25,371 bases of DNA from a virus (lineage: Duplodnaviria > Caudoviricetes): positions 1-25,371 of the IMG/VR virus record IMGVR_UViG_3300025769_000766, one strand, 5' to 3'. Numbering within the stretch: position 1 is the first letter of the stretch; each line of letters starts with the position of its first letter. Both the position numbers and the translations under genes were made by a program. This document shows, in pieces, positions 1-22,958 of the stretch. Under the pieces are notes generated by a model. That model was not told the origin of the DNA, ran no database searches, and saw nothing but the letters and a program-made list of their open reading frames with translations.

Positions 1-2
1 TA

Positions 3-1476: not shown

Positions 1477-1486
1477 AATATATTTA

Positions 1487-2464: not shown

Positions 2465-2903
2465 ACCATTAGTAAATGTAATATCTGTTGAACCTAAAGA
2501 TGTCGAGAGATTTTGGCCCTTAACAGAATTTATGGTTGCTGAGGCATTAAAATATTCTGGTCAGTATGCAAATTCAAAACATATTTATGATTATTTAAAA
2601 AAAGATTTGATGCAATGTTTTATTATGTTTGGTTCAGATGAAATGGAAGAGAATAAAGTTTTTGGGGTAGGTATTACTAGAGTATCGGAAATGCCTAATT
2701 TTAGTCAACTAGAGATTGTCATATGTACTGGTAAAAGAAGGGACTTATGGGAGGATCAATTTGTTGATATAATAACGAAGTTTGCAAAAAGTAACAATTG
2801 TAAACGCTTATGTCTTTGGGCTAGACCTGGTTGGGAAAAAGTTTCCAAAAAATGGGGATGGCAAAAGAAACATGTACAACTAGAGAAATGGATAAATAAA
2901 TGA
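2439..2903 (+). CDS. GNAT-like protein in the virion operon (position of T7 gp13-type genes)
   Basis: 154 aa with ...FAKSNNCKRLCLWARPGWEKV..KWGW, which resembles the GNAT C-terminal pattern. It lies between ejection-type genes. Confidence 0.5.
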   Translation: MKQTKKKIKPLVNVISVEPKDVERFWPLTEFMVAEALKYSGQYANSKHIYDYLKKDLMQCFIMFGSDEMEENKVFGVGITRVSEMPNFSQLEIVICTGKRRDLWEDQFVDIITKFAKSNNCKRLCLWARPGWEKVSKKWGWQKKHVQLEKWINK

Positions 2904-3754
2904 GTTTTATAGGCGGATTATTTGGAGGCGGTGGACAACCACAATCTTCTCCTACATCACAAACAACTTTTGTAAGAGAAGCACCAGGCATAGAAGAAAG
3001 AAAAATAGAATTGATGGACATTGCGCGACAGGTAGCGCAAAAACCAGTTAATCTCCCAGACTATCAAGTAGCAGGATTAGGTGCTTTAGAAAGACAAGGA
3101 ATTCAAGCAGCCGGGCAAACAGGTGTCGGAAGTGGTGCGGTTGGTCAAGGTATAACTGGAGTACAAGGAGCAATGGCTCCTGTAGGTGCTCAACAAATAT
3201 CTCAATATTTAAATCCTTATCAACAATATGTTACAGATGAAATTTCAAGACAAGGACAAATGATGCAACAACAACTAGGAGCTAAAGCAATAGGTGCTGG
3301 AGCTTTTGGTGGTGGAAGAGAAGGTGTACAACAAGCAGAATTACAAGGTAGAACTTTATCTGAAATGGGTAGAGCACAAGCTCAAGGATTTAATACAGCA
3401 TTGCAAGCAGCACAGAATCAACAAAGAGTTGGTTTACAAGGTGGGCAATTATTAGGTGCGTTAGGCGCACAACAACAACAAATGGCTCAGGGAGACATAC
3501 AACAAATGATGGCTGCAGGAGGATTAGAAAGACAATTAGCTCAAGCAGCACTTGATGCACAAAGACAATCTACATTACAACAACAATACGAACCATATCA
3601 AAGAGCAGAGTTCTTAAAAAATATGTACGCAGCTGGGCCTACTACTCAATCTTCAATTACAATGGGAACTGCGCCAGGGGCGGCTCCGTTAGCACAATCA
3701 ATAGGTACAGGTTTAGGAGCTTTCCAAGCATTCTCAGGAACAAGGCAGGCGTAA
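2900..3754 (+). CDS. Putative DNA pilot/ejection protein (Gln/Gly/Ala-rich)
   Basis: MSFIGGLFGGGG start, YLNPYQQYV, GAGAFGGGR, Gln-rich helices and a C-terminal GTGLGAF. ATGA overlap with the upstream gene. Confidence 0.65.
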   Translation: MSFIGGLFGGGGQPQSSPTSQTTFVREAPGIEERKIELMDIARQVAQKPVNLPDYQVAGLGALERQGIQAAGQTGVGSGAVGQGITGVQGAMAPVGAQQISQYLNPYQQYVTDEISRQGQMMQQQLGAKAIGAGAFGGGREGVQQAELQGRTLSEMGRAQAQGFNTALQAAQNQQRVGLQGGQLLGALGAQQQQMAQGDIQQMMAAGGLERQLAQAALDAQRQSTLQQQYEPYQRAEFLKNMYAAGPTTQSSITMGTAPGAAPLAQSIGTGLGAFQAFSGTRQA

Positions 3755-5110
3755 ATGAATAAAGTTTTATTAAGACCTTTATTTAGAGAGGCGTACTTAA
3801 AAAAAACTGAAAAAAAATTACCTGTTAAAAAATTTAACGTAGGGGGATTTTCTAAGGTAGAAAAAAGAAATCTACTTCTAACTCCTATTACGTCAGCGTT
3901 ATTACAAGCAAGAAGAATGCCTGGAGAAAGTCAGCTAGGTTCTGTATTCAGAAGTATTGGTAAGGGTATGGAGAAATTACCACAAACACAATTAGCTATT
4001 AAACAAATAGAACTTGAAGAACAAGCAAGAGAAGAAAGAAAAAAGGAAAAAAAATTTGCATCTTCTAAAAAAGTATTAGATCAAGATACAGGTAAAGTAA
4101 TTTTTGCAGACGAAGAAACTATTCAAACAACATACTCATCAAAACAACCGAATCAATTTAGATATGTTCCAGTGCCTGATGCTGAAAAGGCAGGTAAACC
4201 TACGAAAGTTTTTGATACAGAAACACAAAGCGTAGCCTATGCTCCACAAGGAGATATTTTAACTGCTAAAAATTCTAGTGGAGAGTTAAGATATTTACCA
4301 GTAGGAAAAGAAGATTCTTTGGTTAAAGCTTACCCTATAATAGACGGAGTACAAAGCGATACTTCTCAATTTGTAACAAAATCACAAATTTTAGAAAACC
4401 CAGAAGGGTTTGTTCCTGTTGAAGGTAATTTAGAAATGATGATGAAAATGAAAGACATCGATAGAATGAAAAAACAAAAAACAGATGCAGAAAATGCTAT
4501 GTTAGCGGCTAGAGATGTTGGGGAAATTATTACTAGAATTGAAAAAGATGTAGCTAAACAAGGCGCTTTCACTGGTAATGCAGCAGATACAGTATTAGCT
4601 ATAACAGGCATGACAGGATTTATTGATTCTTTTGTAAGCAGAAACAAACAAAAAGAAGGCAAACTATTTACTCAACAGTATCAAGATACCGAAGATGCAA
4701 TAGGTCAATTAACAAACGAAGATAGTCCTAACTTTAATGCAAAAATAACTGCCTACTTAAATGCACCAGAAACACAGGCAGCAAAAACATCTATCATTAA
4801 TTTAGCTTACGCAATTGCTAAAGCTAGAGAGCCTGGTGGAAGATTTAGTGTACCTGATATTGAATTAGCTTTACAATCAATTGGAGAAAGTTCTAACAAA
4901 CAAACTTTCTTAGCAGGTTTAAGAAGAATAGGATTAGAGATAACAGGTAGAGCACTAACAGATTATGAAACTATATTTAATGTAACAAGAGATGAAATAC
5001 CAAAAGGATATAACAAGGTTGGTGATCAATATAATTATTTCTCAGGTGTACAATTTACTGAACAAGATAAAAATAAGATAGACCCTAAAAATTTATTTGG
5101 AGCAAACTAA
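3755..5110 (+). CDS. Putative internal virion/ejection protein with three internal ~40-aa repeats
   Basis: Starts immediately after the upstream stop. N-terminal LLRPLFR and KKFNVGG, three KV.D...RY.PV-like repeats, C-terminal PGGRFSVPDIE. Confidence 0.6.
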   Translation: MNKVLLRPLFREAYLKKTEKKLPVKKFNVGGFSKVEKRNLLLTPITSALLQARRMPGESQLGSVFRSIGKGMEKLPQTQLAIKQIELEEQAREERKKEKKFASSKKVLDQDTGKVIFADEETIQTTYSSKQPNQFRYVPVPDAEKAGKPTKVFDTETQSVAYAPQGDILTAKNSSGELRYLPVGKEDSLVKAYPIIDGVQSDTSQFVTKSQILENPEGFVPVEGNLEMMMKMKDIDRMKKQKTDAENAMLAARDVGEIITRIEKDVAKQGAFTGNAADTVLAITGMTGFIDSFVSRNKQKEGKLFTQQYQDTEDAIGQLTNEDSPNFNAKITAYLNAPETQAAKTSIINLAYAIAKAREPGGRFSVPDIELALQSIGESSNKQTFLAGLRRIGLEITGRALTDYETIFNVTRDEIPKGYNKVGDQYNYFSGVQFTEQDKNKIDPKNLFGAN

Positions 5111-8100
5111 TGGCACTTTTATCAGTAGCAAATGTTGACGAATACAGACAGCAGTATGCAGAGGAATTAGCTGCGCAAGAAGAAAAATTAGGAGCACCTA
5201 TAAGTAATGAATTGATTACAGAAAAAATATATGGTGTTATATCTCAAAAAGCAGATGTAGATTATTTTTCTTTTTACAAAGCTTTTAATCCAGATGGTAA
5301 ATATTCTAATATAGATTCTTTTAGGGAAACAATTAAAGATAAAGATTTAAACGATACGGAAATTATAAACAAAGCTTACGGTGAGTTACAAAACACAGGT
5401 AAAGTAAGATTTAAAGATTTTGTAAATACCTTTGCACCTAAAGAAGAAGATTTAAGTGAAGCAGTAAAAAGAGATTTTAATATTATTGGTTTAAATATAC
5501 CGGATGTGGAATACTCAGTGAAAGAAATAGCGGAAATGAGAGGAGTTAATCCTGATACAGATGTAGGATTAGCGGAAATAGGCTTTGCACAAAGCTTAGC
5601 AAGAAATGATGCTAACGAAGTTTTAGCTTCTAAAAAAGTTTTATCAGATTATTTTGGCCAAGAAATTCCACTAAGATATGGCCCCGAAACAGAAGAGTTA
5701 GAATTTTTAAATCCTAAAACAGGAGACTATGAATTATTAAATAAACCAGGCATAGATGCTGGGGATATGGCAAAGTTTGGATCAACTGCAGCGGTTATAG
5801 TTCCAGAAATTGTTGCTACAATATTTGCAACTGGTGCTACAGGACCTACAGGAGGTGTAATTACCTCAGCAGCTACGAGTGCTGCATTAGAAACAGCTAG
5901 ACTTGCTCTAGGTCATCAACTTTATGGTATCAACCAAACAGAAAAAGGTTTTACTGATTACCTTAAAAATGAAGGTAAAGACATGGCTGTTTTAAACGGA
6001 GCGCTAACAACAGCTGGTTTTACTGTACCTAAACTTTATCGAATGATTAAACAATTTAGAAATATGGGTAAAATAAATGCTTCTGATTTTGGTGGGACAA
6101 TTAAAAATGCGGAACAAGCTCAAGAATTAATTACAAAAATAAATGATAGATTAATAACTTTAGGTACTAAGAAAAAATTAAAATTTACATTAGGACAAGC
6201 AGGAGATGACGCTGAACTACTAGCATTACAAAACGCTTATGAAAGCAATCCTAAATATGGTGTAAAAGGAATTTTTGATAGTTTTAATAAGGAACAAGCT
6301 GAAGCATTAGATACATTTTTTCTTTTAGCAAGTGATCCATATAACTACAAAGGTATATCAGGTAAAGATAATATATTATCAGATGAGTTAGGTAAAAAAA
6401 TACAAAATGTAATCCTTCAAAGATTAGAACCTAGACAAAAAATATTAACTAAAGCTTTAGAAGCAGCAGAAACAGATTTAACTGAAGCAGTTATAAAACT
6501 TCCGGGAGGATCTCAAAAAGAAGCAGGACAATCTATTAGGGGAGTGATTGATACCTTGTATAAGGATTTTGATGAGCTTTACGATCAAAAGTACACAACT
6601 CTTTTTGCAACAGGTAAAGGAAGAAAAGTAGGTACTGATATAATAAGAGAAGCGGTGAAGAGTTTAAACAAAAGACAAAAAGATACATTATTTAAAAAAT
6701 ACCCAGATATAAAAACTTTTTTTAATGCACCTAAAGGTAAAACAGTATCAGTTAATACGTTAAAAAATACTTTAAGTGATTTAAGAAAATTTGATAGAAG
6801 TATTAAAAAAGGAACATTACCAATAGAGGGAGAACCTGTAGAGGGTGCTGTATCAAAGTTAATAGGCTCTATAAAAGAGCAGTTTAAAAAAAGCTTAGGT
6901 CAAGACGATGTTTGGTATAAACAGTTTAGAACACTAGATCAAGAATACGCTACTAATAAAAAACTATATAGAGGAACCATAGGAAAATTATTACAAACAA
7001 AAGATGGTGTTTTAAAAATAGCAGACGAAGATGTGTTTGCTCAAACCTTTAAAAAAGGTGCTGGTCAAGAAATGAGAATAGATCAGATTTATGAATTATT
7101 AAAAAGAAAACCAGAATTTATCCAAACTTACAAAGACTCTATATTGAAATCTTATAAAACATTTGTAGATCCTGCAGACACTGGAAAGATTAATTTAGTA
7201 AAACATCAAAAATTTTTAAATGATTACAAATACGCTCTTGAAACATTCTTTGGTAAAAAAGGTTATAAAGAGATTACTAAAGTTGGTAACTTAGCTAAAA
7301 AAGTTAATGAAACATCTCTCAAAAGAGATAAAATAATGAAACAACTGGGAACTACTACAAAAGGTAAATTAGAGAATATGGACCCAGATAAAATTTTTCA
7401 ATACTTATACAATAATAAATCACCTACAACTTTAAATAAAGTTATGACGATTATCAGACAGGATGATAATTTATTGAAAGCTTTTCAAACAGTTGCCAAG
7501 GACGATTTAATGTTTAAAGCAACTAACAATAGAGGGCAATTTGTATTCGATAAGTTTGCAGATTATATGAAAAATAATAAACAAATTTTAGAAAGAACTT
7601 TTGCTGACAACCCTCAGTACGTAAAAGATTTATCTTTGTTTAGAGATGCTTTGGAAGTAACAACTAGAAAATCAACTCAAAAAACTATTAGTAAAGCAGA
7701 AACTGCTTTAAATGATATTATTAGAGCTAGACTTGGACAATTTACAGTAGCAGGTAGAACATTTACCGCTTTGAAAAAAATATTTAGATCGGATATTGAT
7801 AGACAATTAGCAGAAATAATGACAGATCCTAAAAAATTAGATCAACTTCTAAGTTTAAAGAATGTGAAAACAACTTCAGACACAGCTAAACAAACTATAT
7901 CTAGATTGTTCGGTTACTATATGTTTGATGAAAAATTCTTTGAGGATGATGAATACAGTCCATTAATTATTGATGCAGTCAATAACACAAAAGTATCCGA
8001 AGCTGTAATTGATGCGCAAGAAGGAGATGATCCAGTAGAATTAGCAGAATTAGAAGGTAGTAAATTACCTTTAAACTTGACAGCAAGTACAGCTGCTCCA

Positions 8101-8223
8101 GGAGCAATGCCACCAATGGCCCAACCTCAAGGAATAGCGGGAGTGCAGTCAAGACAAAACTATGAAGCAATGTTCCCTGACGATGCTTTAGGAACAGCTA
8201 TATCGAAAAGAGGAATCGCATAA
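5110..8223 (+). CDS. Large internal virion/ejection protein (1037 aa)
   Basis: Largest gene of the operon, TAATG-coupled. Mostly helical, with a small-residue hydrophobic segment (AAVIVPEIVATIFATGATGPTGGVITSAATSAA) and C-terminal YEAMFPDD. Size and position match podovirus ejection proteins. Confidence 0.65.
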   Translation: MALLSVANVDEYRQQYAEELAAQEEKLGAPISNELITEKIYGVISQKADVDYFSFYKAFNPDGKYSNIDSFRETIKDKDLNDTEIINKAYGELQNTGKVRFKDFVNTFAPKEEDLSEAVKRDFNIIGLNIPDVEYSVKEIAEMRGVNPDTDVGLAEIGFAQSLARNDANEVLASKKVLSDYFGQEIPLRYGPETEELEFLNPKTGDYELLNKPGIDAGDMAKFGSTAAVIVPEIVATIFATGATGPTGGVITSAATSAALETARLALGHQLYGINQTEKGFTDYLKNEGKDMAVLNGALTTAGFTVPKLYRMIKQFRNMGKINASDFGGTIKNAEQAQELITKINDRLITLGTKKKLKFTLGQAGDDAELLALQNAYESNPKYGVKGIFDSFNKEQAEALDTFFLLASDPYNYKGISGKDNILSDELGKKIQNVILQRLEPRQKILTKALEAAETDLTEAVIKLPGGSQKEAGQSIRGVIDTLYKDFDELYDQKYTTLFATGKGRKVGTDIIREAVKSLNKRQKDTLFKKYPDIKTFFNAPKGKTVSVNTLKNTLSDLRKFDRSIKKGTLPIEGEPVEGAVSKLIGSIKEQFKKSLGQDDVWYKQFRTLDQEYATNKKLYRGTIGKLLQTKDGVLKIADEDVFAQTFKKGAGQEMRIDQIYELLKRKPEFIQTYKDSILKSYKTFVDPADTGKINLVKHQKFLNDYKYALETFFGKKGYKEITKVGNLAKKVNETSLKRDKIMKQLGTTTKGKLENMDPDKIFQYLYNNKSPTTLNKVMTIIRQDDNLLKAFQTVAKDDLMFKATNNRGQFVFDKFADYMKNNKQILERTFADNPQYVKDLSLFRDALEVTTRKSTQKTISKAETALNDIIRARLGQFTVAGRTFTALKKIFRSDIDRQLAEIMTDPKKLDQLLSLKNVKTTSDTAKQTISRLFGYYMFDEKFFEDDEYSPLIIDAVNNTKVSEAVIDAQEGDDPVELAELEGSKLPLNLTASTAAPGAMPPMAQPQGIAGVQSRQNYEAMFPDDALGTAISKRGIA

Positions 8224-8414
8224 TGACTAAATCAGCTCTAGAAAAAATTGAGTCTCACGAAAAATTATGTAGAATAATGCAAAAACAAACACACGATAGA
8301 ATGGAAAAAATAGAAGGTTCCATTGGAAGAATAGAAAAAATATTAATAGGCTGTGCTAGTGGTTTACTAGCCGGTATGGGTTTTATTATTTTTGAACTAC
8401 TGACAAGGATATGA
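8223..8414 (+). CDS. Small coiled-coil plus transmembrane protein (XhlA/holin-like)
   Basis: HEKLC...MEKIEGSIGRIEK coiled coil followed by hydrophobic ILIGCASGLLAGMGFIIFELL. TAATG-coupled. Confidence 0.55.
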   Translation: MTKSALEKIESHEKLCRIMQKQTHDRMEKIEGSIGRIEKILIGCASGLLAGMGFIIFELLTRI

Positions 8415-8415
8415 A

Positions 8416-10140
8416 ATGGTCGCTCCTGTCCTTGGCCTTCCTGCATTATTACAAGCAATAGCTACAATTGGCGTTGGTGGAGCCGTAGGATATAAAGCAC
8501 AAAAAGATTTACAACCAGTAATAAAATCGTTAAAGAACAGTCCGGAAGATATGGATAGTTCAGAATTAAAAATGTTACGGGCACTATTGCTGCCTAACCA
8601 AGCTGTAGCTCAAGAGTTAAAAGATATGACTACTTCTAGATCTGTTAAAGCAACAGGAGATGGCCAAGTATTTGCTCCCGATGCAGATGAAATAGAAAAA
8701 CAAAAAGAAGATTTAGAGATACTTTTGAAACCACCCACAAGAGCACCCGAACCAGTTAAACCAGTCATAGAAATATTTCCTGGGGATACGTTAGAACCTC
8801 CGCAAATACCAACTACAGAAAAACCTGAAATACAAACAAAAGAAAGTTTTCCGGATTTATCAGAAGAAATAAATAAACCACAAATATTTGAGCAAAAAGA
8901 AAGTAAAGGTATTATGGGAACAAATTCTCAAGAGGGTGGAAAAATAATTAAAGATGTGACTGCCGGAGTATCAGCACAAGAGGATGCTGTACCTAGTTTA
9001 TTAGAACAAGGAGCACTAGCAAAACCTATTAAAGATTTCTTTAATGAAGATGATCAAGTAGTAAATTATAAAATTGGTGACACTATTGGAGCTTATGGAG
9101 GAACTGTTGAAAGAAGTTTGGATATAGAAGCAAATGTAAAACCTGATTTTAACATAGATACATTTGGAGAAGTTATAAAAGAAAGAGCAAAACAATTTAA
9201 CCAAGATGCTGTGTTTGTTGCTGAATCGGTTCCGGCAGATTTTGAAGGAGCAAACGTAGGCTTTAGTTTAGATTTTGGTTCTGATTTAAAAATGAAAGAT
9301 GCTTTAGATGTGTCTGGAAAATTATCAGAGACAGCTCAGTTAGATGGTTTTACTTTTAAAGTTAAAAATTTAGATACATCAGGTTCGTCAATATATTTAC
9401 CACAAAATATTATAGATGCAGAGTTGACAGAAAAAGCTATTAAAAGATACGGGATAACTGATGAAATTAATAAAGCAGGTTTCATGATGCCTGATGGTAA
9501 AATGTTAAATTTTTCAAGAAACGGAAATGTAAGGGACACCGAACACCGGAGAATCAATCTGACAATGGGTGGTTCTGACGTAAATGATTTTGGACCAATG
9601 TATGATTTTATGAACAAGACCGGTGCTATAAGATTAACAGGTAATGCTAATAGACTGTATGCAGAACTATCTTCTAAACCATCTAATACACAACTAAGAA
9701 AAATTGTTGATGAATATAACAATAATAGAGAAAAATATGATTCAATGATTATAAGTATTACAGTTCCCGGCAAAGAAAAAGGTAGCGGTCAGTTTGGTCA
9801 ACCAAAAATAGAAGCACAAGAAAAAGGTATTGATCTAAGAAAGCAAGACTATAGATTACCAAACGAAGCTTTTTACGAAGTTAATGGAGAGAAAGCAAAT
9901 GCTACAGATATTTTAAATAAATTTAAATCTACTGATGTAGCAGGCAAAACATTTACTGGTATCAGACAGTTAAACATTCCTGATTTTTCAAATATTTCTG
10001 ATCAAGAAGCGTTACAAAAAATAAGAAATTTACAAAACAATATGGGTAAGTTTATTGAATCTACTGGATTAAAAACTCTGGACAAACCTAAAACAAAATT
10101 CTATAACACTAAACTATACACAAAAGGAAAAGATTATTAA
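8416..10140 (+). CDS. Mosaic protein: hydrophobic N-terminus, Pro-rich linker, C-terminal globular domains
   Basis: 574-aa ORF 1 nt after the upstream stop. MVAPVLGLPALLQAIATIGVGGAVG, then a KPPTRAPEPVKP...PPQIP linker, GAYGGTVERS...FNQDAVFV and AGFMMPDGKMLNFS...EHRRI...GAIRL. Confidence 0.7.
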   Translation: MVAPVLGLPALLQAIATIGVGGAVGYKAQKDLQPVIKSLKNSPEDMDSSELKMLRALLLPNQAVAQELKDMTTSRSVKATGDGQVFAPDADEIEKQKEDLEILLKPPTRAPEPVKPVIEIFPGDTLEPPQIPTTEKPEIQTKESFPDLSEEINKPQIFEQKESKGIMGTNSQEGGKIIKDVTAGVSAQEDAVPSLLEQGALAKPIKDFFNEDDQVVNYKIGDTIGAYGGTVERSLDIEANVKPDFNIDTFGEVIKERAKQFNQDAVFVAESVPADFEGANVGFSLDFGSDLKMKDALDVSGKLSETAQLDGFTFKVKNLDTSGSSIYLPQNIIDAELTEKAIKRYGITDEINKAGFMMPDGKMLNFSRNGNVRDTEHRRINLTMGGSDVNDFGPMYDFMNKTGAIRLTGNANRLYAELSSKPSNTQLRKIVDEYNNNREKYDSMIISITVPGKEKGSGQFGQPKIEAQEKGIDLRKQDYRLPNEAFYEVNGEKANATDILNKFKSTDVAGKTFTGIRQLNIPDFSNISDQEALQKIRNLQNNMGKFIESTGLKTLDKPKTKFYNTKLYTKGKDY

Positions 10141-10310
10141 TGGCTACAGTAAAAGGATTATACGATTTAATTAAAAAAGAACAAGCTGAAGGTAAGCCTA
10201 TAGGCATGTTTGAACAATCTATCATCGATGCTTATGAAGCAGGCAAAGATGATAAAAAAACAAAAGAAGTAGATGTTTCATTTGTAAAAAATAAAGATGA
10301 AACTAATTAA
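10140..10310 (+). CDS. Small hypothetical protein (56 aa; not in the supplied ORF track)
   Basis: Hand translation MATVKGLYDLIKKEQAEGKPIGMFEQSIIDAYEAGKDDKKTKEVDVSFVKNKDETN. TAATG overlap with the upstream gene, and it fills the gap to the nuclease. Confidence 0.7.
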   Translation: MATVKGLYDLIKKEQAEGKPIGMFEQSIIDAYEAGKDDKKTKEVDVSFVKNKDETN

Positions 10311-10956
10311 AAAATATCCTTACACACATTACAATCGTTTTTCAGACACTACCGGTAGAAAATATTTAGTAGGTCAAGCTAAAGTTCCAAGTGTAACAAC
10401 AATACTATCAGCCACTAAAGACAAACGTTTTTTAGAAAATTGGAGAAGAAAAGTGGGTAATGAAGAAGCCGACAGAATAATGAGACAAGCATCTACTATT
10501 GGTACAGAAATGCATCAAGTATTAGAGTACGCGTACAACGGACAAGGGTATTACAACGCTAACGAAGAAACAGGTAAACAGCCTAGGATGATGGCTAAAA
10601 TAATATTACAAAATTTAAAGATAGAAGAAGTTTGGGGTAATGAAGTATCTTTAGAATACGAGAACCAGTTTGCAGGGACAACGGATCTTGTAGCACTAGC
10701 GTATGGTAAACCGTCCATAGTAGATTTTAAACAAGCAAACAAACCTAAACGAGAAGAATGGGTAGATGATTATAAGTATCAACTAGGAGCTTACTATCTT
10801 GCACATAAAAAAAACTACGGGCCTATCGAACAAGGGGTGATTAGTATTTGCACAAGAGATCTTCAATACCAAGAATTTAAAATGAATGAATCAGATTTAA
10901 TGGAGTATGGAGATAAGTTTTTAGAAAGAGTAGAACAATTTAAAAAGTTACAATAA
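10297..10956 (+). CDS. PD-(D/E)XK exonuclease (phage RecB/MGME1-like)
   Basis: PSVTTILS, GTEMHQVLE, EVSL, AGTTDLV, IVDFKQ and YKYQLGAY motifs. Confidence 0.85.
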   Translation: MKLIKKYPYTHYNRFSDTTGRKYLVGQAKVPSVTTILSATKDKRFLENWRRKVGNEEADRIMRQASTIGTEMHQVLEYAYNGQGYYNANEETGKQPRMMAKIILQNLKIEEVWGNEVSLEYENQFAGTTDLVALAYGKPSIVDFKQANKPKREEWVDDYKYQLGAYYLAHKKNYGPIEQGVISICTRDLQYQEFKMNESDLMEYGDKFLERVEQFKKLQ

Positions 10957-12378
10957 CCAATCTTTAAGTTCTTCTTCCCCTAAAGTTTTTGCAGCTATCT
11001 GTCCTTTTATAGTTAAAGCTTTCATAATTTTTTCATCTATAGTATTTTCAGTTATAATATCAATAATCACAACAGTTCCTGTTTGCCCTGATCTATGAGC
11101 TCTGTCTTCAGATTGTTTTCGTACTTCTAAATTATAGTTGTTAGAGAAGTAAACAACTGTATTAGCAGCAGTTAATGTTAGACCATAACCACCTGTTGTT
11201 GGATTGCTTACAAAAAATCTTACCTTAGGATCATTTTGAAATAACTCTATAGCTTTCTGTCTATCTTTAAGTTTGGTGGCCCCATATATTTCAACAAAAG
11301 ATTCTTTACCATATTTAGTATTAAGAAATTGTTTTATCTGTTCAATGTTATAAATGTAATTAGCCCATATAATAATTTTATCATCTGTTTCTTCTATAAT
11401 TTCTTCAAGAGCATTAATTTTTTGTTTACCAAACTCCATCATTTTTCCATCATCGTCCTTACAAAAACCATTAGTTAATTGATGTAGTTTTATCATCTCG
11501 GTTAATTTGTTACTGAAAGATATAGTAGAGTCTCCAATGATTGCTAAAGCACGTCTTCTAAGTTTTTCATATAAGATACCTTGTTCACTAGACATAGTGA
11601 CATGTCTTTTTTGTCTTACTTTAGGTTTTAAATCTAAACATTCATCTTTACGAACTCTAAAAGAAAACTTATCTAATTTATGTTCCAATTCCTCAATGTT
11701 TTTGTAGTATTTAGGTATACTAATAAAACGGTTGGCCCCCATTTGTATTTGATGCATTTCAGCATATCTATTTCTAAAAGAATAAAAACTCTCAAAACCT
11801 AATAGTTTAGGATCTAAAAAATAACACTGAGAGTATAAATCAAGTGGGGATTTAGTCACTGGAGATCCAGTTAAAATTCTTCTAAATTTAATATGTTTAC
11901 TAAGAGATAAAATGTATTTAGTTCTTTTAGCTTTTGGATTTTTAATCGTAGTAGACTCATCAATAACAGCAAAATTTTTAGGAAATTTTTTAAGAAAAGA
12001 CTCTGCCTCTTTATACCCGTTTTTACCACTTAGGGCCTCTACATTCATTAGAAATATTTTAAGTTTTTTACTTTTTAAGAAAAAATTCCAGCTTTTAGGT
12101 TTATCTAATTTCCATTGAAATATATCTCTACCTACTACATCTGGTAGGTGCGCTTGTATTTCTTTACTCCATATAGTGTATACAGATTTTGGAGCAATAA
12201 TTAATACTGTATCAATTTCTTTTCTTAAATATAAATACCCAATATTATCAATAGCTGTTTTAGTTTTACCAGTACCCATCTCCATAAAATAAGCATATGA
12301 ATTTTCTTCAGCTGATTTATTTAAAGCAGTTCTTTGGTGTTCAAAAGGTTTAGTCTTATACGGGTATTTCCATTCCAT
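10948..12378 (-). CDS. SNF2-family (SF2) helicase/ATPase
   Basis: Walker A MEMGTGKT, Walker B IDEST, LTGSP, GGYGLTLT and motif VI QSEDRAHRSGQ. ATG at 12378 is preferred over TTG at 12381. Confidence 0.92.
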   Translation of the reverse strand: MEWKYPYKTKPFEHQRTALNKSAEENSYAYFMEMGTGKTKTAIDNIGYLYLRKEIDTVLIIAPKSVYTIWSKEIQAHLPDVVGRDIFQWKLDKPKSWNFFLKSKKLKIFLMNVEALSGKNGYKEAESFLKKFPKNFAVIDESTTIKNPKAKRTKYILSLSKHIKFRRILTGSPVTKSPLDLYSQCYFLDPKLLGFESFYSFRNRYAEMHQIQMGANRFISIPKYYKNIEELEHKLDKFSFRVRKDECLDLKPKVRQKRHVTMSSEQGILYEKLRRRALAIIGDSTISFSNKLTEMIKLHQLTNGFCKDDDGKMMEFGKQKINALEEIIEETDDKIIIWANYIYNIEQIKQFLNTKYGKESFVEIYGATKLKDRQKAIELFQNDPKVRFFVSNPTTGGYGLTLTAANTVVYFSNNYNLEVRKQSEDRAHRSGQTGTVVIIDIITENTIDEKIMKALTIKGQIAAKTLGEEELKDWLL

Positions 12379-12382
12379 CAAA

Positions 12383-12440
12383 ATTATATTAATTTTTTTC
12401 TTGCATTAATCAAGAAAATAATTATTAAGGCTCCAGGAGG
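12383..12440. promoter_or_regulatory. Divergent promoter region of the replication module
   Basis: Inverted repeat TTTTCTTG-cattaat-CAAGAAAA (12396-12418) gives back-to-back TTGCAT and TTGATT hexamers. Minus-strand TATAAT at 12388-12383, plus-strand SD AGGAGG at 12435-12440. Confidence 0.55.
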
Positions 12441-12445
12441 AAAAT

Positions 12446-12994
12446 ATGGAAAACTTAAATATAGAAAAGTTCTCAAATATCGAGTTAGGTAAAGACGAAG
12501 TTGAATCTATTTCTGATAAATGTAATGAACTAAAAAGTCTTCATAAACAAATTGAAGACAAAGAAGAAGAAATTTCTGAGCTGAAAAAAAAGGCCAAAGA
12601 ATATGAGGAACGAATAATTCCTGATATGATGCACGAGGCAGGAGTTCAAAAGCTTGAGCTTAAAGACGGTTCAAAGGTTGAAGTAAAACCTTTTTATGCT
12701 GCTAAAATTCCTGAGTCGAGAAACGATGAGGCTTTTAGTTGGCTTAGAGATAACGGTCATGGAGACATGATCAAAAATATCTTAACGGCAAATATAGACA
12801 AAGGAAAAGACAATCAAGTTTCTGAGTTAATCAAAATTTGTGATGATCTTGGATTTGCATATACTCAAAAACAGAAGGTTGAACCTATGACCCTGAAGGC
12901 ATTTGTTAAAGAACAAGTGGAAGAAGGAAAGCAGGTTCCATTCGACATGTTTGGAGTGTATATTGCTAATAAGACAAAAATAACGAACAAATAA
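12446..12994 (+). CDS. Conserved phage replication-module protein of unknown function
   Basis: Strong SD. N-terminal coiled coil, AFSWLRDNGHGDMIKN and VEPMTLKAFVKEQ, a pattern commonly seen beside phage SSB/primase genes. Confidence 0.7.
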   Translation: MENLNIEKFSNIELGKDEVESISDKCNELKSLHKQIEDKEEEISELKKKAKEYEERIIPDMMHEAGVQKLELKDGSKVEVKPFYAAKIPESRNDEAFSWLRDNGHGDMIKNILTANIDKGKDNQVSELIKICDDLGFAYTQKQKVEPMTLKAFVKEQVEEGKQVPFDMFGVYIANKTKITNK

Positions 12995-13007
12995 TAACGG
13001 AGTAACT

Positions 13008-13799
13008 ATGAAAATAAATGACAAAAAAGAAGTCGCTGTCAAAGAAGTTGGTGGCGCTGTTGCAAATATAAATTTGGAACAATTTGCAGACGAAGGTTTT
13101 GAAAATGTAGACTCAAAAAGTTTGGCTTTACCATTTTTAAAAATACTTGGTCAACTATCTCCACAAGTAACGCAAGGAGATTCACAATTCATATCAGACG
13201 CAAGACCTGGTATGATTTTTAACACTGTAACTAATCAATTATATGATGGTCAAAAAGGAATTTCAGTAGTTCCATGTTTTTATAAGCTTGAGTATATTGA
13301 GTGGAGAGACAGAGGTATGGATGGAAGTTCAGCACCTGTAAATATCTATCCTGCAGACAGTGATATAATGTCGAAAACTAACAGAGACGATAAGAATAAA
13401 GATAGACTCGAAAACGGAAATTACGTTGAAGAGACTGCTTCACATTACGTCTTAATTGTGGAAGACAAAAATGTATCTAGCACTGCTATGATGACTATGA
13501 AATCTACTCAAAGAAAAAAATCTAAAAAGTGGAATTCAATGATGATGTCAGTGAGAGAGAAGAAAAAAGATGGATCAGGTTATTTCAAACCTGCACCATT
13601 TACTCAAACGTACACTCTTAAAACTGTACTAGAAAAGAATAATTTAGGTTCTTGGTATGGTTGGGAGATTGAACATGAGGGTACAATTCAATCGAGCGAT
13701 GTCTTAGAGTCTGCTTATAATTTTTACAAAAGTTGTAAGCAAGGAGCTGTAAAAGTTAATCACGATAAAGAAGAGTCCACGGAAAAATCACCATTCTAG
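13008..13799 (+). CDS. Putative single-stranded DNA-binding/annealing protein
   Basis: SD GGAG. LPFLKILGQLSPQ, YIEWRDR and GSWYGWEI, with an acidic tail ending in PF (DKEESTEKSPF) like SSB tails. Lies directly before the primase. Confidence 0.55.
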   Translation: MKINDKKEVAVKEVGGAVANINLEQFADEGFENVDSKSLALPFLKILGQLSPQVTQGDSQFISDARPGMIFNTVTNQLYDGQKGISVVPCFYKLEYIEWRDRGMDGSSAPVNIYPADSDIMSKTNRDDKNKDRLENGNYVEETASHYVLIVEDKNVSSTAMMTMKSTQRKKSKKWNSMMMSVREKKKDGSGYFKPAPFTQTYTLKTVLEKNNLGSWYGWEIEHEGTIQSSDVLESAYNFYKSCKQGAVKVNHDKEESTEKSPF

Positions 13800-13800
13800 T

Positions 13801-15375
13801 ATGGACGTACTTGACAAGACCCTGGGGGAGTTTATAGAACTCTTCCAGGGTTCACTCACATATTTTGGAGCTTCTAAACCGTTAGGCCAAACGCGTAGCC
13901 GGGACGGGAAGCAAGAATTTAGGCATTGGGTTGAACCCAAACCAATGACTAAGGATCATTGGTTACAACATTTAAAAGGAGAAGCTTACTATGGATCCGT
14001 TCCCATTCGAGATGATAATACATGCAGTTGGGGGGTCATCGATGTTGATCGTTATAATATACAGCATAAGGACGTTATATCGGTTATACGGAAAAGGAAA
14101 TACCCACTCGTCCCATTCAGATCAAAATCCAACGGACTCCATTTAATATTATTCATTGACGGTGTTGTCGAAGCTTCCGACATGCGTAAAAAATTAATTG
14201 AGCTTGCTTCTGATTTAGGTGTTAATGATACTACAACAGATATTTATCCTGCCCAAGACAAAGTAGATCTTACCCCGGAAAAGTGGGACGACAAACATAA
14301 AGGAAGTTATGTAAACCTTCCTTACCAAAAAGCGCACATGACAACTAGAGTTGCAATGGATGATGATGGTAACTCGATTAAATTAGAAGATTTATTTGAA
14401 TTTGTAAAACAACATAAACTTACCCCAGAAAATTTTAAAAAATTAAAAGTATTTCAAGACGATGAAACAAAAGATTACCCACCTTGTGTAGTTAACTTTA
14501 TGAAAAACAAAGTGCAAAAAGGTGAGGGCCGTAACGATGCTATGTTTAATGTAGCTGTATTAGGTAAAAAAATTAATCCAGATCCCGTCATGTACCAAGA
14601 TTGGACACGTAAGATGATGGGTAAAGTATGTTCTGAGGAATTACATCCAAAAGAATTAGAAAATATTTTTAGAGGAGTTGAAAATAAAGAGTATGCTTAT
14701 AAATGTAAAACATCCATAGCTAGAATGCATTGTTCTTCAAGCACATGTTTGAGACGTAAGCATGGTATTGGGGCTAATGAAGCTATACCTGAAGTTGGAA
14801 AACTTGTTAAAATAAATTCATATCCGGAACCTTATTGGATTCTTCCCATACAAGGAAAGTCAGTTAGATTATCTACAAAACAATTATACCAACAGCAACT
14901 ATTAGGAGAGCAATTATTAAATTATGATATTGTTTGGAGACCTCTTAAAGCATCAAAAAGAGATCCAGATCCTTATAGAGATTGGCTTGAAGAATTAGTC
15001 TCTAACAAACAAGACATGGAAGGATTTGATGCTCATGAAGAACAGAATGATGTATTTAATTCAAGGTTATCGCAATTCTTAGAAGATGTAGAGGATACCA
15101 CTGAGTTTGATCAAATAGACTCAGGAAATATTTGGATAGATAAAGTAGAGATGAGATTTAAATTAGAAACGTTTAGAAAATTTATGAAAAAGATGGGGTA
15201 CAATTGGTCCGAAAAAGATTGTACTAAATTCTTAGAAGCAGGGGGAGCAGTGCCTAAGAAAAAATTTCAAAACATTGACACACGTCATTGGATTGTGAAA
15301 TTACCAAAACAAACAGAGCATAAAAACAAAGATGTTAAATTCGTTAAACAAAAAGCTGCGTGGGAAGACAATTAA
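13801..15375 (+). CDS. AEP-superfamily primase with PriCT-like domain
   Basis: WGVIDVD (DxD), RSKSNGLH (SxxGxH), IYPAQD...GSYVNLPY, PPCV...GEGRNDAMF and a Cys cluster YKC...HCSSSTC. No Walker A is seen. Confidence 0.8.
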   Translation: MDVLDKTLGEFIELFQGSLTYFGASKPLGQTRSRDGKQEFRHWVEPKPMTKDHWLQHLKGEAYYGSVPIRDDNTCSWGVIDVDRYNIQHKDVISVIRKRKYPLVPFRSKSNGLHLILFIDGVVEASDMRKKLIELASDLGVNDTTTDIYPAQDKVDLTPEKWDDKHKGSYVNLPYQKAHMTTRVAMDDDGNSIKLEDLFEFVKQHKLTPENFKKLKVFQDDETKDYPPCVVNFMKNKVQKGEGRNDAMFNVAVLGKKINPDPVMYQDWTRKMMGKVCSEELHPKELENIFRGVENKEYAYKCKTSIARMHCSSSTCLRRKHGIGANEAIPEVGKLVKINSYPEPYWILPIQGKSVRLSTKQLYQQQLLGEQLLNYDIVWRPLKASKRDPDPYRDWLEELVSNKQDMEGFDAHEEQNDVFNSRLSQFLEDVEDTTEFDQIDSGNIWIDKVEMRFKLETFRKFMKKMGYNWSEKDCTKFLEAGGAVPKKKFQNIDTRHWIVKLPKQTEHKNKDVKFVKQKAAWEDN

Positions 15376-16945
15376 AATTTTTGGGCCACCCGGAACTGGA
15401 AAAACTGAGAATCTTTTAAGAAGAGTTCAACGTTTTTTAAAACAAGGAATATCTCCAGAAGAGATATGCTACATATCTTTTACTAATAAAGCGGTAGATG
15501 AATGTGTTGGACGTATTCGTAAAAAATTTAAAGAGTACGATGAAGACAGCTTTCAATATTTTAGAACCTTACATAGTTTGGCTCGACAGCAGTTTGCTGA
15601 AATACCGGTGTTAGATCCTAAAGCAGATTTGTTAATGTTTCATACACAATACGGAACGGTAAAAGTAAATTTTAAAAATGAATATGATGATGTAAAAGTT
15701 TATAACAATTGGTCGCTTCAAATTTATGATAGAGCAAGAAACATGAAAGTAGATCCAGTTTGGTTATATAAACAACAACCGAGAAAAGCGGTACGTTTAC
15801 AACAGTTCAAGTCAATTATTGCGGGATACGAGGAGTTTAAAACAATGGAAATGGATAACGGACAACGGACAGCGGACAGACTAGACTTCACCGATATGGT
15901 AAAGAAATTTATAGATGATGCGGGACAACTTCCTATAAAAGTTTTGATGGTAGATGAAGCTCAAGATTTAACCCCGTTGCAGTGGGACATGGTTGTTAAA
16001 ATTGCAAAAAATGTTTGGAGAGTTTACATAGCAGGAGACGATGATCAAGCAATCTATGAGTGGAATGGGGCTGAGGTAGAATATTTTCAAAGCTTTCCTG
16101 GAAGAAATGTAATTTTAAAAAAATCAGTAAGACTTAACAAAGACGTACATTTTTTTTCTAAATGTTTATTGTTAGGTATGAAAAACAATAGAGTAGAAAA
16201 AGAGTTTTATTCAAATGATAAAGATGGGGCCATATATTATTGGAATACTTTAAAGAAAGTACCTTGGAATTTAACTGGTAGTTGGTTAATCTTAGCACGT
16301 ATCAATGATGTTAAAAAAGAACTACAAGAAGAAGCTAGGAATTTATCTCTTTATTATCAAGATGTTAAAGGCAATAAATCTTTTGACATGAATCAGTTCA
16401 AAGCTATTCAATATTGGGAAAAAATATGTGAAGGGGGAAGCATTACCAGAGAAGAAGCTTGCATTATGTATGAGTATTTACTAAACATAGACCATGGATT
16501 TAGGTCTCAAGACAGTAAAAAATGGTCGTTTGCTCATCCTAATCAGGTATTTAACTTTGACGAATTACATTTAAGATGTGGTATGACAGATAATAAGGGC
16601 CCTTGGTTAAAAGTTTTTAAAAGAAAATTTAAAGAAAAAGATAAGCAATATTTTTTAAAAATGATTAAGGAAGGTGTAGATTTAAACCAACCTCCTAAAA
16701 TTATTATAGACACAATACACCAGGTAAAAGGAGGAGAAGCAGATAATGTTGTATTATCTAGTAAATGTAATTTTCCTTCACACTTTGAGAAAAAAAATTT
16801 AGCAGAGAAAATAAAAGAACTTCGGGTTTGGTATACGGGTGCAACCAGATCAAAGGGAACACTTCACTTGTTAGGCACTCATCATCAATTTAATTTTCCT
16901 TTAGGAAAATATTACAAACTATACGAGGCTAATTATGTCAGATAA
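15332..16945 (+). CDS. UvrD/Rep-like superfamily 1 helicase
   Basis: GPPGTGKT, ISFTNKA, RTLHSL, VDEAQD, AGDDDQAIY, TIHQVKGGEAD and YTGATR. The exact start is uncertain (44-nt overlap with the primase). Confidence 0.92.
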   Translation: MLNSLNKKLRGKTIKIFGPPGTGKTENLLRRVQRFLKQGISPEEICYISFTNKAVDECVGRIRKKFKEYDEDSFQYFRTLHSLARQQFAEIPVLDPKADLLMFHTQYGTVKVNFKNEYDDVKVYNNWSLQIYDRARNMKVDPVWLYKQQPRKAVRLQQFKSIIAGYEEFKTMEMDNGQRTADRLDFTDMVKKFIDDAGQLPIKVLMVDEAQDLTPLQWDMVVKIAKNVWRVYIAGDDDQAIYEWNGAEVEYFQSFPGRNVILKKSVRLNKDVHFFSKCLLLGMKNNRVEKEFYSNDKDGAIYYWNTLKKVPWNLTGSWLILARINDVKKELQEEARNLSLYYQDVKGNKSFDMNQFKAIQYWEKICEGGSITREEACIMYEYLLNIDHGFRSQDSKKWSFAHPNQVFNFDELHLRCGMTDNKGPWLKVFKRKFKEKDKQYFLKMIKEGVDLNQPPKIIIDTIHQVKGGEADNVVLSSKCNFPSHFEKKNLAEKIKELRVWYTGATRSKGTLHLLGTHHQFNFPLGKYYKLYEANYVR

Positions 16946-20403: not shown

Positions 20404-20651
20404 TGAAATCAAAATCTGAAGCTTTTAATGATTGGGTGAATGAAATGGACAAGGTACTTTCTGAAACTCAAACTATAACAATAGATGGTCAACCGATGGA
20501 AGAATCTGATGATCATTTTAAATCACAATTAAAAAAACTTGCAAAAGTTCCGCTAGTCCTAGATGATCAGGCTGTCTACCCACTTAATGAGTGGACATCT
20601 TCTGATTTAGTCCATAGTGAAATTGATGCAAAAAATATGGAGAATGAATAA
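20403..20651 (+). CDS. Hypothetical acidic protein
   Basis: 82 aa, TAATG-coupled at both ends. Confidence 0.7.
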   Translation: MKSKSEAFNDWVNEMDKVLSETQTITIDGQPMEESDDHFKSQLKKLAKVPLVLDDQAVYPLNEWTSSDLVHSEIDAKNMENE

Positions 20652-21430
20652 TGTCTAAAGCAAAAATAAAAGACGACAATGTAATATACGTTACAAGAGA
20701 TTACAGTATGTTTAAAACTGTAAGAGGAAATCGTGAGGTGGACAAAGGACACGTTGCGAAATTAAAAAAAGAAATCAAGAAAAGAGATCTTGATCTTCCC
20801 ATCTTTATCAATGAACATGATGAAGTTGTAGATGGACAACATACCCTACAAGCACGTAAAGAATTGGGTAAACCTATCAAATACATAAGAGGTAAATTCG
20901 AAAATGAATTCGATGTTGCTATTATGAATGCCAATAGAAAAAATTGGTCTATGAAGGGTTACTTAGACTTTCACATTGAGAACGGTAAAAAAGATTATCA
21001 AATCGTTCGAGCAATGACTAAACAATATTCACTACCTTTAGAGTGTGCAATATTTTTACTTGCTGGAGGTTATTCAATGTGGAGAGAAACTAGAAATGAT
21101 TTTAAACAAGGTAAGTTTAAAATTACAGCGTTACAAAGATGTAATGATATTGGTAGTTCGTTAATGTTTATGAAAAATAACTTTAACATTAAACTAACCA
21201 GATCTTTTATTACTGCTTACGCGGTGGTTTCGGAACATCCTAAATTTAAATGGGATCGTTTTAAAACTGCATTGAAAAGTAAATCTGCGATGTTGTTGCG
21301 GGGTACAAATACTGAAGATTTTGTTAGAGTATTTGATAAAATCTACAACGGTAATGTTCACAATAAAATAAACTTTACCAGGTATTTTATTGACCGAGAA
21401 TACCAAGAGGATGAATTAAACAATAACTAA
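20651..21430 (+). CDS. ParB/Srx-like N-terminal domain protein
   Basis: GNREVDKGHV..L...I...DLPIFINE..EVVDGQHTLQA...LG.PI.Y, followed by MNANRKNW. Confidence 0.75.
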   Translation: MSKAKIKDDNVIYVTRDYSMFKTVRGNREVDKGHVAKLKKEIKKRDLDLPIFINEHDEVVDGQHTLQARKELGKPIKYIRGKFENEFDVAIMNANRKNWSMKGYLDFHIENGKKDYQIVRAMTKQYSLPLECAIFLLAGGYSMWRETRNDFKQGKFKITALQRCNDIGSSLMFMKNNFNIKLTRSFITAYAVVSEHPKFKWDRFKTALKSKSAMLLRGTNTEDFVRVFDKIYNGNVHNKINFTRYFIDREYQEDELNNN

Positions 21431-21444: not shown

Positions 21445-21660
21445 ATGGACATAAACAAATGGAAATCCTGTGCCGTTGACATTGATACTTATTGCTTGTT
21501 AAGAGCAATGGGTAGTCACGGCTTTAGGAAACCGGCATCGATGATTGCTAAAATTACCGATGATGAAGTTAAAAAAATTGCTAAAAAGCAAAACGCTTCG
21601 TACGAAAAGACGAAAGAAAATTTACTATCTCAAGGGCGCAAGCTACTGAACGGTAAATAA
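21445..21660 (+). CDS. Small putative DNA-binding regulator (ribbon-helix-helix-like)
   Basis: KWKSCAVDIDTYCLLRAMG...RKPASMIAKI fits a strand-helix-helix pattern; 71 aa, basic. Confidence 0.55.
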   Translation: MDINKWKSCAVDIDTYCLLRAMGSHGFRKPASMIAKITDDEVKKIAKKQNASYEKTKENLLSQGRKLLNGK

Positions 21661-21668
21661 TGGCCATG

Positions 21669-21701
21669 TTGAGCGGTGCCCGGTAGCCTGGGCCCGCTCA
21701 A
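21669..21701. terminator. GC-rich hairpin ending the 20239-21660 operon
   Basis: TTGAGCGG/CCGCTCAA outer stem plus GCCCGG/CTGGGC inner stem. No clear poly-U tail. Confidence 0.5.
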
Positions 21702-21709
21702 TTAAATAC

Positions 21710-21738
21710 TTGCAAAGTTTTCAAATCACCTATAAAGT
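21710..21738 (+). promoter_or_regulatory. Sigma70-type promoter ahead of a ~200-nt untranslated structured region
   Basis: TTGCAA (21710-21715), 17 nt, TAAAGT (21733-21738). It is overlapped by CAAATCACCTA, which repeats at 21753-21763. Confidence 0.5.
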
Positions 21739-21744
21739 AAGATA

Positions 21745-21945
21745 TCGTATTCCAAATCACCTAAATGAAAAAGTGGGGTTAATCACTTTACATTCAATAA
21801 TCACGAAAAACTTTAATTAACTTAATTTTTGAGAGGTTAAAGGTGTATGGGTACGATAATTTTGTTTTTAGACATATTTCCCGTTTTTTCGGGGAACTTA
21901 CATGCGGAGACTATCCATTCCATATCTTTTCCCCTCCGCATGTAA
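21745..21945 (+). ncRNA. Candidate structured leader or antisense sRNA
   Basis: Hairpins at 21770-21789 and 21877-21896, and a perfect 12-bp stem 21898-21909/21934-21945 with a 24-nt pyrimidine-rich loop complementary to start-codon regions. Confidence 0.45.
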
Positions 21946-21949
21946 AATA

Positions 21950-22141
21950 ATGGAAGATCTAGATAGTATAACTCAAGAAAAATTAGAAATTTGTCGTAGC
22001 CTTACAGGAGAGGAACGTTCTGAGTTTATAGAAAATCATTTGGATGATTATTATTTTGCCATGAATATTGTAACTAACCGAAAAGTATTAAGGCATTATC
22101 GTGAATTATTCACTAAACTTATTAAAGATTTTGGGCACTAA
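21950..22141 (+). CDS. Hypothetical protein
   Basis: MEDLDSITQEKLEICR...; the ATG at 21950 is preferred because the 21902 ATG is buried in a 12-bp stem. Confidence 0.6.
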   Translation: MEDLDSITQEKLEICRSLTGEERSEFIENHLDDYYFAMNIVTNRKVLRHYRELFTKLIKDFGH

Positions 22142-22550
22142 TATAGCAAGAGAACTGCTTAACGAAAAACGGACACCGGAGGAGCGGTTGTTTCAGGCTA
22201 TAATATTACAGGCTTTTGAGGACGCTTTAAATATGGGGGAGCATAAGCATGACGCTTACTGTAAACAGGATAGCTATAACTGGTTTACTAATGATACAAA
22301 AAATTTTAACGATATCTGTTGGTTCGCTAATTTTGAGCCGGAGATAATTCGATCTAAGTTCAATGAGCTGATATCAATAAAACAAATAACCTACACCAAA
22401 GTTCAATTAAAATGGCTTAGATATCGTTGGTTGTATAAGGAATATCGAGCTAGCGAGGATAAGGCACAGCGTAGAAAAATTTTAAAAGAGATTAAGAGTA
22501 TCGAGGGGATAAAAAAAGCCCCCAAGGTTAATAAGAAAAAACATAAATGA
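22101..22550 (+). CDS. Conserved phage hypothetical protein
   Basis: PEERLFQAIILQAFEDA...SYNWF...FNDICWFANFEPEIIR, a pattern seen in proteobacterial phages. Start uncertain (GTG 22101 or a later TTG). Confidence 0.65.
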   Translation: MNYSLNLLKILGTNIARELLNEKRTPEERLFQAIILQAFEDALNMGEHKHDAYCKQDSYNWFTNDTKNFNDICWFANFEPEIIRSKFNELISIKQITYTKVQLKWLRYRWLYKEYRASEDKAQRRKILKEIKSIEGIKKAPKVNKKKHK

Positions 22551-22568
22551 AAAAAAAACCTTAGGGGC
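22511..22568 (-). terminator. Large-loop hairpin with U-tract on the minus strand
   Basis: GCCCCCAAGGTT (22518-22529) and AACCTTAGGGGC (22557-22568) pair fully on the minus strand with one G-U, followed by U7 (A7 at 22511-22517). The loop is 27 nt. Confidence 0.5.
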
Positions 22569-22637
22569 AAGAGAGCAAATAATGATAAACACTATTTAAG
22601 TCATTTATAGCACAGGACAACGGATCAGTAAACAATT

Positions 22638-22741
22638 TATCCTCCCCAAGCCCCGAGACTGCTTAAAAGGGTTATATGGGCGATTAAGGGGTAAAATATC
22701 CTCCCCAGACCCCGAGAATTTATCCTCCCCAGGCCCCGAGA
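22638..22741. repeat. Three copies of the 21-bp TATCCTCCCCARRCCCCGAGA
   Basis: Copies at 22638-22658, 22697-22717 and 22721-22741 differ only in the two central purines (AG/GA/GG). Confidence 0.92.
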
Positions 22742-22806
22742 AATATTCTCTTATATAGATTATACAGACCCCTGATAAAGAAAAAGTACCCCATAGGGTA
22801 AATATG

Positions 22807-22910
22807 GTGTCCCTCGTGTCCCTCTAATCAAATAATATAATAATAACAATGCTTTAAGTACGTTTTTATAGTGTCCCTTTGGTGTCCCTATGGTGTCCCT
22901 CAGGGACACC
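22807..22910. repeat. Six GTGTCCCT iteron-like repeats flanking an AT-rich core
   Basis: Direct copies at 22807, 22816, 22871, 22882 and 22893, and an inverted copy at 22902-22909 forming the palindrome GGTGTCCCT-C-AGGGACACC. Confidence 0.92.
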
Positions 22911-22958
22911 TAGCAAGTAATATTACTTAAAGAGATACCCTTCGCAACTTTTTAGAGG

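Follow-up and report, generated by a model that had tools for sequence, protein, structure and literature searches.

The C4 antisense RNAs of phages P1 and P7 and the CI RNA of P4 are mature small RNAs released by RNase P processing. C4 (RF01695) is described, in the excerpt of PMC12197685 used here, as a phage RNA whose complementary sequences likely reside in loops, whose matching is phage-specific, and which pairs near a ribosome binding site and thereby blocks translation; the target is the antirepressor mRNA of a temperate phage. P4 CI is cut from a leader transcript and silences the replication genes of its own phage through antisense pairing with the flanking seqA and seqC in the same transcript, which causes termination (PMC4825925, in part). 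The same portion of PMC4825925 presents IsrK of the Gifsy-1 prophage as a phage locus that is both an mRNA and a trans-acting RNA, and that activates the translation of its own long isoform. VpdS of VP882 and PreS of lambda, both encoded by phages, adjust replication through base pairing; the excerpt of PMC12197685 portrays both as Hfq-dependent sRNAs of temperate phages, acting at least partly on host mRNAs.

Here we describe a locus, found in a group of uncultured ocean phages, whose sequence suggests that one transcript turns down several distant phage genes by base pairing. Its predicted mode of action is like that of P1/P7 C4 and P4 CI, but the locus is not a member of those families. As in C4, the complementary sequence lies in a loop and its matching differs between phages, and pairing is predicted near ribosome binding sites. 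Unlike C4, however, the element is matched to the starts of an SNF2 helicase gene, a ParB-like gene and replication genes located 1.2-9.5 kb away, and it is a single long stem, set at a gene junction and capped by a loop of 21-29 nt, and has no Rfam match. Unlike P4 CI, the matches cover start codons on other transcripts, and pairing with the 28 nt that follow the stem is not conserved. Like IsrK, the locus would be both an mRNA and a trans-acting RNA, but it is predicted to repress unlinked genes rather than to activate its own. In contrast to VpdS and PreS, the covarying targets are phage start sites.

Genomic setting and upstream unit

The window, by which we mean the whole stretch of 25,371 nucleotides that was analysed, is an entire linear virus record. 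For both its terminase small subunit and its SNF2 helicase the nearest GenBank phage is pelagiphage HTVC023P (54% identity for SNF2), and the order of its genes is that of HTVC023P. By these sequence comparisons the window phage is an HTVC023P-like pelagiphage and, because of this kinship, its host is presumably SAR11. Neither an integrase nor an antirepressor was found among the 28 proteins of the window, a record that is about 41% complete.

Two genes start back-to-back: that for SNF2 on the minus strand (12378) and, on the plus strand (12446), a Pam3 gp33-like gene, the first of the rightward replication cluster. Divergent promoter-like sites overlap in the 67 nt between them (12379-12445), and a 17-nt imperfect inverted repeat is found at 12387-12427. 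The SNF2 mRNA appears leaderless or nearly so. From position 20651, the order is the ParB-like gene, a gene for a 71-aa protein, a GC-rich hairpin, a promoter-like site, a leader and the main hairpin. Two ORFs without a family match separate the main hairpin from the terminase small subunit gene: one of 63 aa (21950-22141, plus strand), which starts 4 nt after the stem, and one of 139-149 aa (22101-22550, plus strand), which is conserved in phages and belongs to the same unit. The stretch at 22560-22920, ahead of the terminase small subunit gene, is non-coding and carries short direct repeats, with one additional 24-nt unit at 22710 in a metatranscriptome contig; it is a possible origin or packaging site.

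A sigma-70-type promoter is predicted from conservation at 21710-21738 on the plus strand (-35 at 21710-21715, -10 at about 21733-21738); the site has 8 of 12 matches and was not listed by a consensus scan. The conserved 5' leader (21743-21858, plus strand) has an inner 6-bp helix that is kept in 21 of 21 sequences, with a double change at one pair. Both the promoter-like site and about 100 nt of the leader are conserved from clade A to clade D, and in clades A and B the 5' end of the leader is predicted to pair with a relic SD and start region near 21840-21858. Between 21743 and 21800 the leader is near-invariant in clades A-D, beyond the need of its one helix, and this part may be a separate regulatory element or a protein-binding site. 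A short 5' stretch of the leader could also pair with the loop of the helix as a pseudoknot, with one matched change, seen by eye, that distinguishes clades A/B from C/D.

The GC-rich hairpin (21669-21701, plus strand) follows the 71-aa gene and has a U-tract in some relatives that is absent here. Judged from its sequence, it probably acts as a terminator and shields the unit from transcription that starts upstream. The 71-aa protein (21445-21660) is highly conserved, with 362 matches in viral contigs. We take it to resemble a ribbon-helix-helix regulator or another small DNA-binding protein; no credible Pfam or PDB match was found for it, and a single-sequence model reached a pTM of 0.35. The protein could control the promoter at 21710. 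In some relatives (L016, at about 9150-9690, and L157), extra genes have been inserted ahead of the promoter and 3' of the 71-aa gene, and promoter, leader and hairpin remain intact as a block.

The main hairpin

A perfect 12-bp stem had been reported at this junction by the first-pass annotation, and it is indeed present: 21898-21909 pairs with 21934-21945 on the plus strand, closing a pyrimidine-rich loop of 24 nt (21910-21933). This stem is the longest pair with 100% complementarity among the 25 listed of the 34 inverted repeats in the window, and folding of a 201-nt region gave z = -1.9. The main hairpin precedes the 63-aa ORF, with the core of the loop kept, in 29 of 29 loci, and a long stem surrounds such a loop in all of the 62 distinct sequences obtained from 104 loci, a set picked by the downstream gene in which one contig was retrieved more than once, in which the window itself is counted and from which HTVC023P is left out. 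The stem of relatives measures 11-17 bp and the loop 21-29 nt. Among 50 distinct copies, 92.1% of the cells were paired, compared with 26-49% in slid-register controls, and double-sided changes occurred at 16 of 16 stem pairs, figures that are favoured because the structure was derived from the same 50 sequences. Thus stem and loop, whose conservation had been proposed as a check, are both conserved, the stem in its pairing, with a sequence that is free to vary, and the loop in an 8-nt core and a U/C tract. Inside the stems of the same copies, G·U (G·T in DNA) was found 99 times and A·C 3 times, indicating that the hairpin folds on the plus strand. By these comparative data, the hairpin is a conserved plus-strand RNA structure, as predicted from sequence, at a gene junction behind a promoter-like site.

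A hairpin model built from the copies gave one match per genome and recognized the hairpin in 51 of another 55 loci; of the four loci missed, three extend less than 500 nt beyond the 71-aa gene. The model matched 0 of 23 and 0 of 54 loci (77 in all) from deeper lineages. The hairpin is absent from L378, although the flank is long enough there, and from the stretches examined of the cultured or reference phages HTVC023P (118-24296 and 59000-60878), HTVC027P (1-16000) and 023Pt_psg01 (1-16000). Rfam returned no match at the gathering score in the window, the best E values for 21640-22000 (1.2-4) being far under gathering, and no credible match in the relative L208. We found no description of this hairpin in the literature or in Rfam; PMC10690425, which tabulates candidate RNAs with Pelagibacter hosts, possibly includes it as an unannotated entry. 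An intrinsic terminator was considered and rejected: the loop has 24 nt, a U-tract is absent, and a terminator scan did not list the hairpin. Metatranscriptome contigs from four runs partly cover the region; they are unstranded, give no level and may stem from DNA carry-over, and the gaps around the pieces listed (those of X1 end at 21676 and begin again at 21952, one of X3 starts at 21957 and one of X8 ends at 21711) prove nothing.

Could coding sequence explain the hairpin? Translation might start at ATG 21902 or ATG 21847, or a minus-strand small ORF could supply the SD and ATG of which the loop is the complement, and all three frames are open in the window. The two plus-strand frames are nevertheless not conserved, because 1- and 2-base indels among close relatives shift them, and translation from ATG 21902, which the first-pass annotation had named as a competing explanation, does not account for the sequence. 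The minus-strand ORF was likewise rejected, as it ranges from 2 to 52 codons across the 50 copies and has no common peptide. We regard a coding origin of the hairpin as very improbable.

Complementarity to gene starts

The loop had been read as the reverse complement of an SD plus ATG. Its core (21919-21926) and U/C tract (21927-21933) are nearly constant and complement starts composed of a purine spacer and AUG, while its 5' half (21914-21923) complements the SNF2 start and differs by clade. In agreement with that reading, 12 genomes or long loci contained 112 sense-strand complements of at least 9 nt, of which 30 fell at predicted starts, where 7.3 were expected and shuffled loops gave 5.9; the starts came from a simple ORF picker and some are internal methionines. 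In the window alone, six separate places match the loop over at least 10 nt, and neither claimed target was among the 8 best non-self duplexes when energies were computed for 5070 sliding windows. Scanning a sequence collection with the loop core gave at least 120 matches and, among the matches listed, most were unrelated coding sequence. Since the enrichment at starts could be generic, specificity was tested in 31 contigs that carry both the hairpin and the divergent starts, that is, 32 paired contigs minus G020, which ends before the hairpin; only 2 of 35 further hairpin-bearing records extend to the divergent starts. The contigs fall into five clades, each of which an independent protein tree separates from the rest by a single branch; one of the clades is a single contig. 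When the contigs' own loops were paired with 14 gene starts, SNF2 gave -14.7 and the gp33-like gene -15.5 kcal/mol, and the other 12 gave -3.9 to -11.1 kcal/mol. Both DNA strands encode targets, and without exception the RNA is antisense to the target's mRNA.

The best-supported candidate target of the loop is the start of the SNF2 CDS (12369-12378, minus strand), which varies between clades and has no upstream SD; the reported match between loop positions 21914-21923 and the first 10 nt of the CDS (12378-12369) was confirmed. With cognate and non-cognate combinations compared over the five clades, the true assignment was the best of 120 by Watson-Crick runs (p = 0.008) and gave p = 0.033 by energy; this covariation had been noticed by eye ahead of testing, 14 genes were tested, and an exo-gene control gave p = 0.042. 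Moreover, the clade B SNF2 start pairs better with clade A loops than with those of clade B, and non-cognate loops in general pair fairly well. In 11 of 12 genomes or loci the SNF2 start took rank 1-6 out of 24-96 predicted starts, and in the twelfth rank 10 of 27; with shuffled loops its median ranks were 7.5-51. Mismatches in the SNF2 duplexes comprised 13 G·U and no A·C, compared with 43 G·U and 87 A·C for ten control genes. Clade F was added after the tests; in each of its 4 distinct contigs that reach the SNF2 start, inspection by eye shows the 5' half of the loop pairing with the start of the same contig, over 9, 7, 8 and 12 nt. As this start is of the type known from clades C and D, the pairing represents retention and not new covariation. 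One core base of the loop is changed in clade F, and we had predicted in advance that the targets there would carry the matching change. This prediction failed: the target sequences are unaltered at the position, which leaves a G·U pair. Lineages without the hairpin and HTVC023P have unrelated SNF2 starts, which fits antisense pairing but is confounded by descent.

The start region of the gp33-like gene (PF23984; 12439-12451, plus strand) pairs strongly with the loop, in the bulged duplex described before. No clade-level covariation with the loop was detected across the five clades (p = 0.23 and 0.43). The mismatches in its duplexes show no excess of G·U (10, against 17 A·C), and shuffled loops often equal its rank because the SD is G-rich. 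In clade E, in which the gene has no SD, 11-nt perfect pairing with the loop was found in 9 of 9 distinct pairs; the clade F gene lacks an SD as well. One single-base change between contigs c248 and c257 is common to the loop and the gp33-like target. The gp33-like gene and some early genes are probably also targets. Several leftward or early gene starts match the 3' half of the loop over 10-13 nt. The 3' half is matched in this way by the starts of a recurring early-region gene of about 145 aa and of some others (L208 at 15797 and 9191; also G023, G042 and G013), with 13 nt in L208. On sequence grounds, these genes are further candidate targets.

A second antisense segment (21859-21880, plus strand), which is the 21860 segment of the first-pass annotation, is present in clades A and B only. 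The ParB-like gene (phrog_12305; 20651-20659, plus strand) is the third candidate target: the initial 9 nt of its CDS pair with 21867-21875 in the segment. In lineages a2, a6 and b1, where the ParB-like start has changed, the segment changes along with it. Over 11 lineages, cognate pairing exceeded non-cognate pairing (p = 0.0005 by Watson-Crick runs and 0.005 by energy), values that are optimistic because the lineages are related; nine control genes gave one value below 0.05 in 27 tests. The segment leaves the start unpaired in 3 of the 11 lineages, and the mismatches in the ParB-like duplexes are 7 G·U and 1 A·C. In clade D, assigned for this comparison by loop type, a protein-coding gene occupies the place of the segment, and it is the 3' half of the loop that complements the ParB-like start region, over 9-13 nt in 12 of the 13 distinct pairs listed. 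Folding of 9 sequences from clades A and B predicted, in all 9, a small hairpin (21877-21896, plus strand) that lies between this segment and the main hairpin and differs in sequence among them.

In sequence, then, complementarity is observed and covariation is found for two targets. The proposed check for covariation came out in favour of the SNF2 start (with the loop) and of the ParB-like start (with the 21860 segment), and found none at clade level for the gene at 12446. As in trans-encoded antisense RNAs, the structure is conserved on one strand and compensatory changes connect it with unlinked starts, those of SNF2 and of the ParB-like gene; for the gp33-like start no such covariation was found across the five clades. 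The layout of C4 and P4 CI, in which the targets flank the RNA in its own operon, was not found, the covarying targets being unlinked (the scan in cis covered the 28 nt after the stem). We know of few trans-acting RNAs for which covariation between loop and target is visible.

The mismatches also bear on whether the element works through a protein or as DNA, be it as an operator, as a single-stranded DNA hairpin, or as a minus-strand decoy that imitates start sites and so titrates a translational repressor. A core and U/C tract that are almost constant over divergent stems would suit such a role, as would the product of the neighbouring 71-aa gene, which we presume to be small and DNA-binding-like and for which Pfam, PDB and the single-sequence model gave nothing. 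But the wobble mismatches (13:0 for SNF2, 7:1 for ParB-like) are in line with RNA pairing, and a DNA motif in common would not account for them; likewise the 99 G·T against 3 A·C in the stem speak against a cruciform or a minus-strand fold. We consider a role of this kind quite improbable.

The first-pass annotation further proposed that the loop pairs in cis, as a pseudoknot, with the downstream ORF. The two hexamers concerned are present, at 21950 and at 21962-21967, but the pseudoknot is not conserved: the downstream gene keeps the start required for it in 27 of 62 sequences, and the commonest best pairing is 5-6 nt. The pseudoknot was therefore rejected. More broadly, the hairpin could be a cis element only, whose stem brings the upstream stop beside the downstream AUG, or gates the translation or decay of the 63-aa gene, the likeness of the loop to start sites being generic. 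In clades C and D, an ORF of about 83 aa ends 0-5 nt into the 5' arm of the hairpin (18 loci with the leader pattern, of 69 examined), so that the hairpin is embedded in an mRNA, and the next AUG is within a few bases 3' of the stem, as such coupling would have it. The ORF, seen in L197, L208, L257, L298 and others, is conserved, starts with GTG or TTG, and has no Pfam match. A generic loop would also be in keeping with the enrichment of loop complements at many starts besides the named ones, and pyrimidine tracts with CAU would pair with any purine-rich start. However, a coupling stem has no need of a conserved 21-29-nt loop, and the hairpin outlives the upstream ORF: in clades A and B the ORF is gone, the hairpin is kept and the second antisense segment appears, and a midpoint-rooted tree without an outgroup root suggests that the ORF was lost in these clades. 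Moreover, the cognate bias of the SD-less SNF2 start, its 13:0 G·U bias and the covariation of the segment with the ParB-like start would be left unexplained. A role confined to cis thus seems rather unlikely.

A predicted trans-acting repressor

The reading that we favour, with a probability of roughly 0.55, is that an antisense RNA acts in trans to block translation initiation, its purpose being to turn early and replication genes down. A plus-strand transcript, made from a host-polymerase promoter near 21710, would display unpaired anti-start sequences in the stem-held 24-nt loop and, in the lineage of the window, in the 21860 segment. In the cell, loop and segment would pair in trans over the AUG and first codons of the SNF2 and ParB-like mRNAs, and the covered AUG would no longer admit ribosomes, as expected from established antisense behaviour. 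Early and replication genes would be turned down in this manner as infection proceeds. In clades C and D, the hairpin would lie inside a polycistronic mRNA.

The same pairing might instead serve to exclude superinfecting phages or to maintain a dormant carrier state: the replication starts of the resident phage, or of incoming kin, would be silenced, as by the C4 and CI RNAs. The clade-specific matches between loop and target resemble immunity specificity, and the unit is preceded by a terminator-like hairpin and by a promoter-like site of its own; by analogy, C4 underlies the heteroimmunity of P1 and P7 (PMC12197685, in part). Yet the one HTVC023P-type isolate that has been studied is called lytic in the portion of PMC12753301 used here, non-cognate loops pair fairly well, and the three matches in 185,579 genomes are contigs of 4.6-15 kb in unrelated MAG bins. 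We hold a function in exclusion or carriage to be unlikely. Contigs L332, L333 and L334, which contain this phage gene, come from MAG bins named Saprospirales, Thermoplasmatales and Proteobacteria and are probably mis-binned phage DNA; L332 and L333 have the main hairpin.

Returning to the turn-down of early and replication genes, a more far-reaching version can be put forward tentatively, and we would not bet on it. Possibly, a protein-coding middle transcript of lytic ocean phages is a multi-address antisense repressor in trans, in which a long stem at a gene junction presents a large anti-start loop that silences both divergent replication transcripts as well as early genes, with no need for a free small RNA. 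In one lineage, the gene 5' of the hairpin would then have decayed into a further address directed at the ParB-like gene, and what was an mRNA would have become a regulatory RNA.

If the favoured reading is true, the element would be a protein-free mechanism, acting at the level of translation, for ordering phage gene expression. With named targets and natural compensatory alleles at hand, this mechanism would be testable in a simple reporter system.
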